Assembly (NCBI RefSeq): GCF_003334815.1
Contig: NZ_QOWO01000049.1
Reading direction: 5' to 3' (one strand)
DNA length: 23,721 nt
DNA from: Escherichia coli
GTDB lineage: Bacteria > Pseudomonadota > Gammaproteobacteria > Enterobacterales > Enterobacteriaceae
The notes beneath the pieces are model-generated. The model worked only from the letters and a program-made list of their open reading frames with translations. It was not told the DNA's origin and did not search any database. Below are positions 19,602-19,836 of this stretch, in pieces. Each line of letters opens with the position of its first letter. Within the stretch, counting starts at the first letter, position 1. Made by a program: the position numbers and the translations under genes.

Positions 19602-19836
19602 AAAAACTCCATTTATGTTATTTACAAAAAAACCAGAGCGGTATTGACAGGTTAAGTCAATCCGGCACAGAACCATCGCAAATGATTCTGTGCCTGAAAT
19701 ACTAGTTCATTCCCAAAGCCTCTTAAATTTTCAGTGCTACAGAGTTGTGGTCAATTCAATCGTCAATATGTGAAATATATTATGCTATATTTTGTCAATT
19801 ATGGCTCTGATAAAAAGAAACGTTAAATTATTAATA
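19602..19836 (-). promoter_or_regulatory. Leader/promoter region between the cox-like gene and traA, with four GTCAAT direct repeats and a 9-bp-stem hairpin
   Basis: AT-rich 235 bp; plus-strand GTCAAT at 19656-19661, 19750-19755, 19762-19767, 19794-19799 (ATTGAC on the transcribed strand); inverted repeat GGCACAGAA/TTCTGTGCC at 19664-19672 and 19686-19694. No promoter could be assigned confidently by eye. Confidence 0.4.

Follow-up and report, generated by a model that had tools for sequence, protein, structure and literature searches.

The leader of traA, the F-type pilin gene of this Escherichia coli plasmid, carries an approximately 55-nt module of two adjacent hairpins, here called H1 and H2. 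We show that in the pCoo-type branch of F-like plasmids this module (19640-19694) is conserved as a lineage-specific component of the traA leader, and that it is an RNA-level feature of the traA-sense strand, linked to traA and not to the gene upstream. The window, which is the whole 23,721-nt stretch of DNA analysed, is identical to positions 11936-35656 of plasmid pJNE25-005_2 from E. coli JNE25-005 (NZ_AP045059.1). Its F-type tra operon lies on the minus strand, where traA is followed by traL, traE, traK, traB and further genes up to traT. The region considered here is the 235-nt stretch from the stop codon of a cox-like gene to the traA start, read on the minus strand. An initial annotation had described, within 144 bp of this stretch, four GTCAAT direct repeats and a hairpin; this segment is a composite of the conserved leader module and non-conserved hexamers, which have different histories.

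Based on the RefSeq annotation and plasmid matches, traA occupies 19242-19601 (minus strand) directly after the leader, and traM is annotated in RefSeq at 20875-21261 (minus strand). The traY position is taken by a gene for a Cox-family DNA-binding protein (19837-20124, minus strand), assigned by annotation and a Pfam Phage_Cox match at 1.1e-20, and divergent from it lies a gene of the XRE-type helix-turn-helix class (20243-20545; Pfam HTH_3 and annotation). In pJNE25-005_2 the tra transcript probably begins with the cox-like gene.

H1 (19664-19694, minus strand) appears in both the minimum-energy and the centroid folds of the traA-sense RNA. Its 5' arm is GGCACAGAAUCAU (19694-19682), its loop is UUGCG (19681-19677) and its 3' arm is AUGGUUCUGUGCC (19676-19664). 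The arms GGCACAGAA (19664-19672) and TTCTGTGCC (19686-19694), which had been noted as an inverted repeat, are present and belong to a real hairpin, but the geometry of 9 bp with a 13-nt loop proved wrong: the stem has 13 bp (19664-19676/19682-19694), one of them a U·G pair on the traA-sense RNA, and the loop has 5 nt. H1 ends 62 nt before the annotated traA ATG (19601), which agrees with the distance of about 60 nt given earlier, whereas the proposed order of repeats and hairpin has to be reversed for the copy at 19656, which on the transcript lies downstream of the hairpin and not upstream.

H2 (19640-19663, minus strand) directly abuts H1 and is defined by its predicted fold and its invariant arms. 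It consists of GGAUUGAC (19663-19656), the loop UUAACCU (19655-19649), GUCAAU (19648-19643), a bulged A (19642) and CC (19641-19640). An inverted copy of the hexamer, ATTGAC at 19643-19648, had been overlooked, and it pairs with the GTCAAT at 19656. The core of H2 is thereby a perfect 6-bp palindrome, ATTGAC-N7-GTCAAT (19643-19661), which extends to 8 bp with one bulge (19640-19663). H2 ends 38 nt before the traA ATG, and the ribosome-binding site lies outside both hairpins. The linker between H2 and traA (19602-19639, minus strand) is unstructured and comprises GCUCUGG, a U7 run (19632-19626), an A/U-rich stretch and the Shine-Dalgarno sequence GGAG (19610-19607), followed by the ATG.

The hairpin is more than a product of chance. 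The sense RNA of 19596-19712 folds with -36.7 kcal/mol (z = -5.15), and none of 200 shuffled sequences reached an equal fold, while the opposite strand of the same leader segment gives -27.1 kcal/mol (z = -3.4). No second perfect copy of the H2 palindrome was found in the window or on the 71-kb plasmid. When 18800-22300 was scanned against Rfam 15 at E <= 1, no match fell in the leader (19590-19800).

When the leader alone was used as a blastn query, it matched 208 plasmid records from Escherichia, Salmonella, Citrobacter, Enterobacter, Klebsiella, Serratia, Shigella and Yersinia. This number is close to that of the records encoding a TraA with at least 60% identity (about 212), and in the approximately 208 plasmids the element precedes traA regardless of which gene lies upstream. 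For a detailed comparison, we assembled 25 distinct leaders from six genera, drawn from plasmid blastn matches, species-representative genomes and metagenomes. The mean pairwise identity among them is 44% immediately upstream of H1, 81% in the 5' arm of H1, 54% in its loop, which is 5-16 nt long, and 95% in its 3' arm; both arms of H2 are 100% identical in all 25 distinct sequences and the H2 loop reaches 84%. Part of this sample had been retrieved by exact-pattern searches anchored on the H2 arms or on the 3' arm of H1, a choice that makes the invariance look greater than it is; the 10 plasmid sequences derived from blastn exhibit the same invariance as the full set.

The conserved block begins at H1 in every group, and in natural contexts H1 starts 1-24 nt past the stop codon of the upstream gene. 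In most groups an A/U-rich motif, (A/U)UUC, precedes it. In most relatives the H2 spacer has 7 nt; the Yersinia and Serratia plasmids have 6 nt there, and their arms are the same. Downstream, the linker after H2 varies (GCUCUGG, GCUGGGG or GUUCUGGGUG), and H2 ends a constant 36-40 nt before the traA ATG in eight annotated relatives. The upstream ORFs of the different groups have no detectable similarity to each other, and the module has been kept in the window although the upstream genes were swapped for the cox cassette. The element persists through at least four different upstream regulatory cassettes, which shows that its functional tie is to traA rather than to the regulators. In classical F, R100-type plasmids and pIMI-6, no analogous structured spacer was found; these have unstructured spacers of 32-65 nt instead, with fold z-scores of -0.4 to +0.5.

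The pairing itself is maintained in the alignment. RNAalifold recovers both hairpins, and the predicted minimum-energy fold contains H1 in 25 of 25 sequences and H2 in 24. Cells that can pair make up 92% for H1 and 95.2% for both helices together, compared with 26-45% for both helices when the partners were shifted by 1-3 columns. Covariation comprises two pairs with double changes and three more in which one-sided changes convert G·U to a Watson-Crick pair, and the observed score was reached in none of 500 shuffles. Among the H1 pairs, columns 30-53 are AU in 20 sequences, GC in four and GU in one, so that A-U is replaced by G-C in four of them and a G·U intermediate is seen once; columns 24-59 are UG in 18, CG in five and UA in two, the U-A state being found in the Yersinia and Serratia plasmids; columns 31-52 are UG in 16, CG in eight and UA in one; and columns 29-54 are AU in 21 and GU in four. 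Columns 23-60 are mismatched in 18 of the 25 sequences. The covariation of H1 is modest, since its two double-change pairs are carried by two clades, and there is none in H2; because the H2 arms never vary, H2 offers no covariation evidence in either direction.

The same alignment indicates which strand is favoured. The wobble states pair only on the traA-sense strand, and an antisense RNA would have A·C mismatches in their place. In 22 of 25 sequences the sense strand gives the more stable fold, with means of -25.7 kcal/mol for sense and -21.1 kcal/mol for antisense. The hairpin is real and biologically meaningful. The variable length of the H1 loop (5-16 nt) argues against H1 as a dimeric DNA-binding site.

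Other readings were considered and discarded. Coding does not account for the conservation: the in-frame ORF from an upstream ATG inside the H1 3' arm (19242-19676), which would give an N-terminally extended TraA, is broken by a 1-nt deletion in pCoo and by indels in other groups, and the ATG is not conserved. A hairpin in the single-stranded DNA of the transferred strand does not fit either, because the T-strand, judged by the transfer orientation of F, has the antisense sequence, which folds worse.

Outside the module, the 144-bp segment has another history. In approximately 180 pCoo-type plasmids, similarity to the window extends from traL across traA and the leader and breaks off at 19737. 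Beyond this point, 19738-20816 replaces a pCoo segment containing a gene annotated as TraJ and, in the traY position, an ORF of 55 aa. The stretch 19698-19737 (minus strand) is a remnant of the last approximately 11 codons of the pCoo-type ORF, which is now interrupted by stop codons (LKI*EALGMN*), and marks the left edge of the swap. The pCoo ORF had no Pfam match, and a BLASTP comparison with a Salmonella TraY-domain protein revealed no similarity; for this reason we call it the traY-position ORF and not TraY. The cox/HTH cassette is common only to CP099215, CP099211 and two metagenome contigs. At the level of sequence comparison, we thus show that a P2 phage-type repressor/Cox cassette took the place of traJ/traY and in doing so created the spacer with the hexamers. 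In this neighbourhood, the cassette is the more unusual feature. This AT-rich spacer (19738-19836, minus strand) runs from the stop codon of the cox-like gene to the traY remnant and carries three non-conserved hexamers at 19750-19755, 19762-19767 and 19794-19799, which read GTCAAT on the plus strand and ATTGAC on the sense strand.

All four plus-strand copies of GTCAAT (19656, 19750, 19762 and 19794) exist as described, yet the cluster does not exceed chance once the search over the window is taken into account. We shuffled the window in 250-bp blocks with dinucleotides kept and asked for any non-trivial hexamer with at least four same-strand copies in 144 bp; an equal cluster appeared in 92 of 300 shuffles (31%). 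Over the whole window, GTCAAT has 13 matches against 13.9 +/- 3.6 expected, which is no enrichment. A local shuffle for GTCAAT itself gave 0 of 5000, but this test was chosen post hoc and is circular. The four copies have nothing in common beyond the bare hexamer, and their spacings of 32, 12 and 94 bp are irregular. A micro-tandem at 19767-19749, ATTGACG-ATTGA-ATTGACC, includes the two middle copies. The copy at 19656 is the 5' arm of H2 and is conserved in about 200 plasmids that have no cox. In CP099215, the nearest relative, the spacer has drifted and retains only the 19762 copy of the three upstream hexamers. The four direct repeats are therefore an accidental grouping of one conserved hairpin arm and three junction hexamers. 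As a separate observation, the densest hexamer cluster of the window is a GAGTATA/TATACTC array upstream of traM.

It had been proposed that the Cox-like protein or a host factor could bind the repeats and that the hairpin could be a target for an antisense RNA by analogy with FinP/traJ control; we regard this combined reading as extremely improbable. In its favour are the four exact copies in 144 bp with one inverted copy and the post-hoc local shuffle, together with the background that P2 Cox binds arrays of direct repeats. The present case resembles the P2 Cox boxes in having direct repeats with a Phage_Cox protein encoded nearby, 40 bp upstream of the cluster. It differs from them in that the hexamers are irregular and are not conserved with the protein: the Cox of CP099215 is 97% identical, and two of the three upstream copies are lost there. 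They also lack a shared flank. The expected site of Cox action is the repressor/cox intergenic region, which contains no exact GTCAAT and two matches with one mismatch (20245 and 20142). A direct-repeat array, whether of Cox boxes or iterons, was accordingly rejected, given a bare hexamer with irregular spacing, a chance-level count and no conservation with the protein. A shared Cox-box-like motif, AG[AG][CG]CA, was uninformative, having only two matches, both in the switch region and none in the hexamer spacer. In the C/cox intergenic regions of P2-like prophages, the operators were not alignable and no ATTGAC pattern was found, and literature searches turned up neither this leader nor an F-like tra operon under Cox control.

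The antisense half of the proposal is not supported either. The FinP/traJ leader is alike in having two stem-loops in the leader of a tra gene on an F-like plasmid. Here, in contrast, the scan found no promoter- or terminator-like site on either strand in 19590-19720 and none on the plus strand in 19200-20690, so that no antisense promoter or terminator is seen; the hairpins leave the ribosome-binding site uncovered, the wobble pattern and fold stability favour the sense strand, and Rfam gave no match. By annotation, the 71-kb plasmid has no finO.

The same scans bear on attenuation, which had also been suggested. H1 and H2 could slow or partly terminate polymerase before traA and thereby set the ratio of regulator to structural transcripts. 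Two strong adjacent hairpins followed by the U7 run are consistent with such a pause or attenuator, as is the start of the module 1-24 nt after the upstream stop codon. However, there is no U-tract after H1, the U7 run begins 7 nt past the H2 stem, the linker varies and the terminator scan is empty at this site. No anti-terminator pairing is conserved; the outer stem present in the fold of the window itself is absent from the consensus fold, which contains H1 and H2 only. Termination before traA would also be counter-intuitive, since pilin is the most abundant tra product. Taken together, we consider attenuation very unlikely. The leader has no RfaH ops element either; a perfect ops occurs just once, at 16188-16198, downstream of traB. 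With TTGAC read as sigma-70 -35 boxes, the spacer has two weak promoter-like matches of 9/12 (19826-19798 and 19754-19727), and the -35 of the latter is lost in CP099215. The region has 12 promoter-like matches against 7.8 +/- 2.7 expected, and those in the spacer may not stand above expectation.

With a genuine hairpin conserved at the RNA level, the suggestion of a processing site stays live. We tentatively favour a model in which H1-H2 serves as an intercistronic stabiliser or processing element of the pilin mRNA. In this model, the tra operon would be read through the leader from an upstream promoter, probably TTGACA-17-TATTCT at 20249-20221, and H1 and H2 would act in cis on the polycistronic tra RNA. 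If an endonuclease then cleaved the A/U-rich sequence immediately preceding H1, the strong stem of H1 (13-16 bp) would come to lie at the newly formed 5' end or close to it. Such a processing step is needed for the 5'-end position, because no promoter lies directly upstream of H1. There, H1 would shield the traA segment from 5'-end-dependent decay, such that pilin mRNA would exceed the message of the upstream regulator. The invariant H2, at its fixed 36-40 nt from the ATG, may together with the U-rich linker provide a docking or stand-by site for traA translation. A stable and maintained stem-loop of sense RNA between the upstream gene and traA, which a stabiliser calls for, was indeed found.

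Leader elements of this kind are known, and the one described here is probably a new case restricted to one lineage. For plasmid R1-19, Koraimann and Hogenauer (1989, NAR 17:1283) reportedly described a core of traA mRNA that arises by processing and is selectively stable; this case is alike in that the pilin segment of an F-like tra operon becomes selectively stable by processing upstream of traA, which is proposed here. The traY-traA spacers of F and R100-type plasmids differ in being unstructured, 32-33 nt long and devoid of homologous hairpins; the two-hairpin module occurs only within the pCoo-type pilin lineage. In P-fimbrial operons, RNase E processes the transcript between papB and papA, which gives a stable pilin mRNA. 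As in the tra leader, a regulator gene precedes a major pilin gene in one transcript, and differential stability would lead to an excess of pilin message; the sequence and structure are unrelated, however, and here the stable structure is 5' of the pilin gene and the cleavage is putative. The hairpin of the ompA 5' UTR is similar in its order of a strong stem-loop, an A/U-rich single strand and a ribosome-binding site, and in belonging to a highly expressed mRNA for an envelope protein. It differs in lying at the primary 5' end, and the sequence invariance of H1-H2 is far higher than a passive hairpin needs.

This invariance is the feature that the stabiliser model leaves unexplained: hairpins that stabilise passively rarely need an invariant sequence, while the H2 arms do not vary at all and the H1 3' arm is more conserved than its 5' partner (95% against 81%). 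Going by the sequences, this pattern points to an additional sequence-specific constraint. One possible, if rather unlikely, explanation is that H1-H2 is a sequence-specific post-transcriptional control point for pilin synthesis, in which the approximately 30 invariant nucleotides of the H1 3' arm and H2 would be bound by a trans-acting factor, either an RNA-binding protein or a small RNA, that gates pilin translation or mRNA decay. A host RNA-binding protein (Hfq, ProQ or CsrA), a host small RNA or a conserved tra factor are candidates; as the adjacent regulators differ between plasmid groups, any common partner would have to come from the host or be a conserved tra factor. Such a factor would account for arms that are held while the loops and flanks drift, and the fixed distance from H2 to the ATG and the U-rich tract that follows H2 are also consistent with it. 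On the other hand, no extended complementary partner was found on the 71-kb plasmid, where the best matches were 12-mers at chance level (E >= 0.37), and no Rfam family is matched. For CsrA, a GGA motif located in the stem rather than in the loop, as it is here, is atypical.

The invariant bases could also be read in DNA, with the palindrome at 19643-19661 as an operator where a bound dimeric transcription factor would form a roadblock or exert regulation just upstream of traA. A perfect and invariant inverted repeat, whose arms show no covariation as if the bases themselves were read, is what such a site would look like. We nevertheless consider an operator distinctly unlikely. The palindrome occurs in a single copy in the window and on the plasmid, its spacer changes from 7 nt in most relatives to 6 nt in the Yersinia and Serratia plasmids, and it lies inside a transcribed leader with no promoter near. 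The site is constant while the plasmid-encoded regulators differ between groups. Moreover, it stacks on a hairpin of RNA type and continues to 8 bp through a bulge, which is RNA-like.

Pilin supply limits the building of F-pili, and hence plasmid transfer, biofilm formation and sensitivity to male-specific phages. Lying before traA in approximately 200 sequenced plasmids, a conserved cis-acting RNA element would be a defined and mutable handle on pilin expression, and the module also serves as a compact marker of this plasmid lineage. If the leader were indeed a control point read by a trans-acting factor, a widespread branch of F-like resistance and virulence plasmids would possess a further level of conjugation control, one that would be independent of whether the upstream switch is of the TraJ, HTH or phage C/Cox type. 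For what had originally been claimed, the outcome is mostly a correction, as the segment holds neither a repeat system nor evidence of FinP-like control. As a minor observation, an H-type pseudoknot between the H2 loop (AACC) and a downstream GGUU can be drawn by eye in most sequences; it would comprise 3-4 bp and is G/U-rich.

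At 19738-20816 the window carries a P2 phage-type switch where pCoo-type plasmids, which are related F-like plasmids, have a TraJ-annotated gene and an ORF in the traY position, and the exchange is a clean replacement. The switch comprises an XRE/C-like HTH gene on the plus strand (20243-20545) and a Phage_Cox gene on the minus strand (19837-20124) in a divergent arrangement. Among 5426 complete E. coli genomes, only one had this cassette, which was otherwise found only in two PLSDB plasmids and two metagenome contigs; the remaining Cox homologues in the plasmid database lie within int-C-cox prophage modules. 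In the literature that we searched, there appears to be no description of an F-like tra operon driven by a switch of the phage lysis/lysogeny type.

On the minus strand, a putative promoter from which the cox-like gene and the tra operon would be transcribed lies at 20249-20221 (TTGACA-17-TATTCT, 10/12 match), where its -35 hexamer overlaps the start codon of the HTH gene. The candidate promoter is flanked by two 15-nt direct repeats, TTGACATATCTGCCA and TTGTCACATCTGCCA, which are 39 bp apart (20196-20249). The layout of the promoter and its bracketing repeats resembles that of the P2 C repressor's operators, which are direct repeats. Approximately 3.4 kb into the tra operon, a perfect RfaH ops consensus, GGCGGTAGCGT, is present in the tra sense on the minus strand (16188-16198), between traB and the traR-like gene.

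Upstream of traM, the densest hexamer cluster of the window is formed by GAGTATA/TATACTC at 21326-21502, with five copies on one strand and eight when both strands are counted, a copy number that exceeds that of every one of 300 shuffles. The cluster also contains a perfect 18-bp inverted repeat, in which 21442-21459 pairs with 21464-21481, and it probably represents binding sites of the TraM/oriT region. Beside oriT, the SLT-domain lytic transglycosylase gene (21731-22238) is given in RefSeq as a frameshifted pseudogene, yet an intact 168-aa ORF is present at 21732-22238. Outside the window, on plasmid NZ_AP045059.1, no finO is annotated downstream of traX, and the genes for an ANR-family regulator and a thermonuclease, together with hha, are found in its place. 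The psiB gene of the same plasmid is interrupted by ISEc31.

In the traA leader, a mechanical ORF list includes a 144-aa ORF on the minus strand (19242-19676), which extends TraA by 25 residues and whose ATG falls inside the 3' arm of the conserved leader hairpin H1. Because this frame is not conserved in relatives, we rejected the extension as an artefact. The exact enterobacterial core of the traA leader also occurs at 2420-2440 of JAFUAW010000175.1. This contig of 112 kb was assigned to a Lachnospiraceae MAG from the duodenum of roe deer and is probably a mis-binned plasmid contig.
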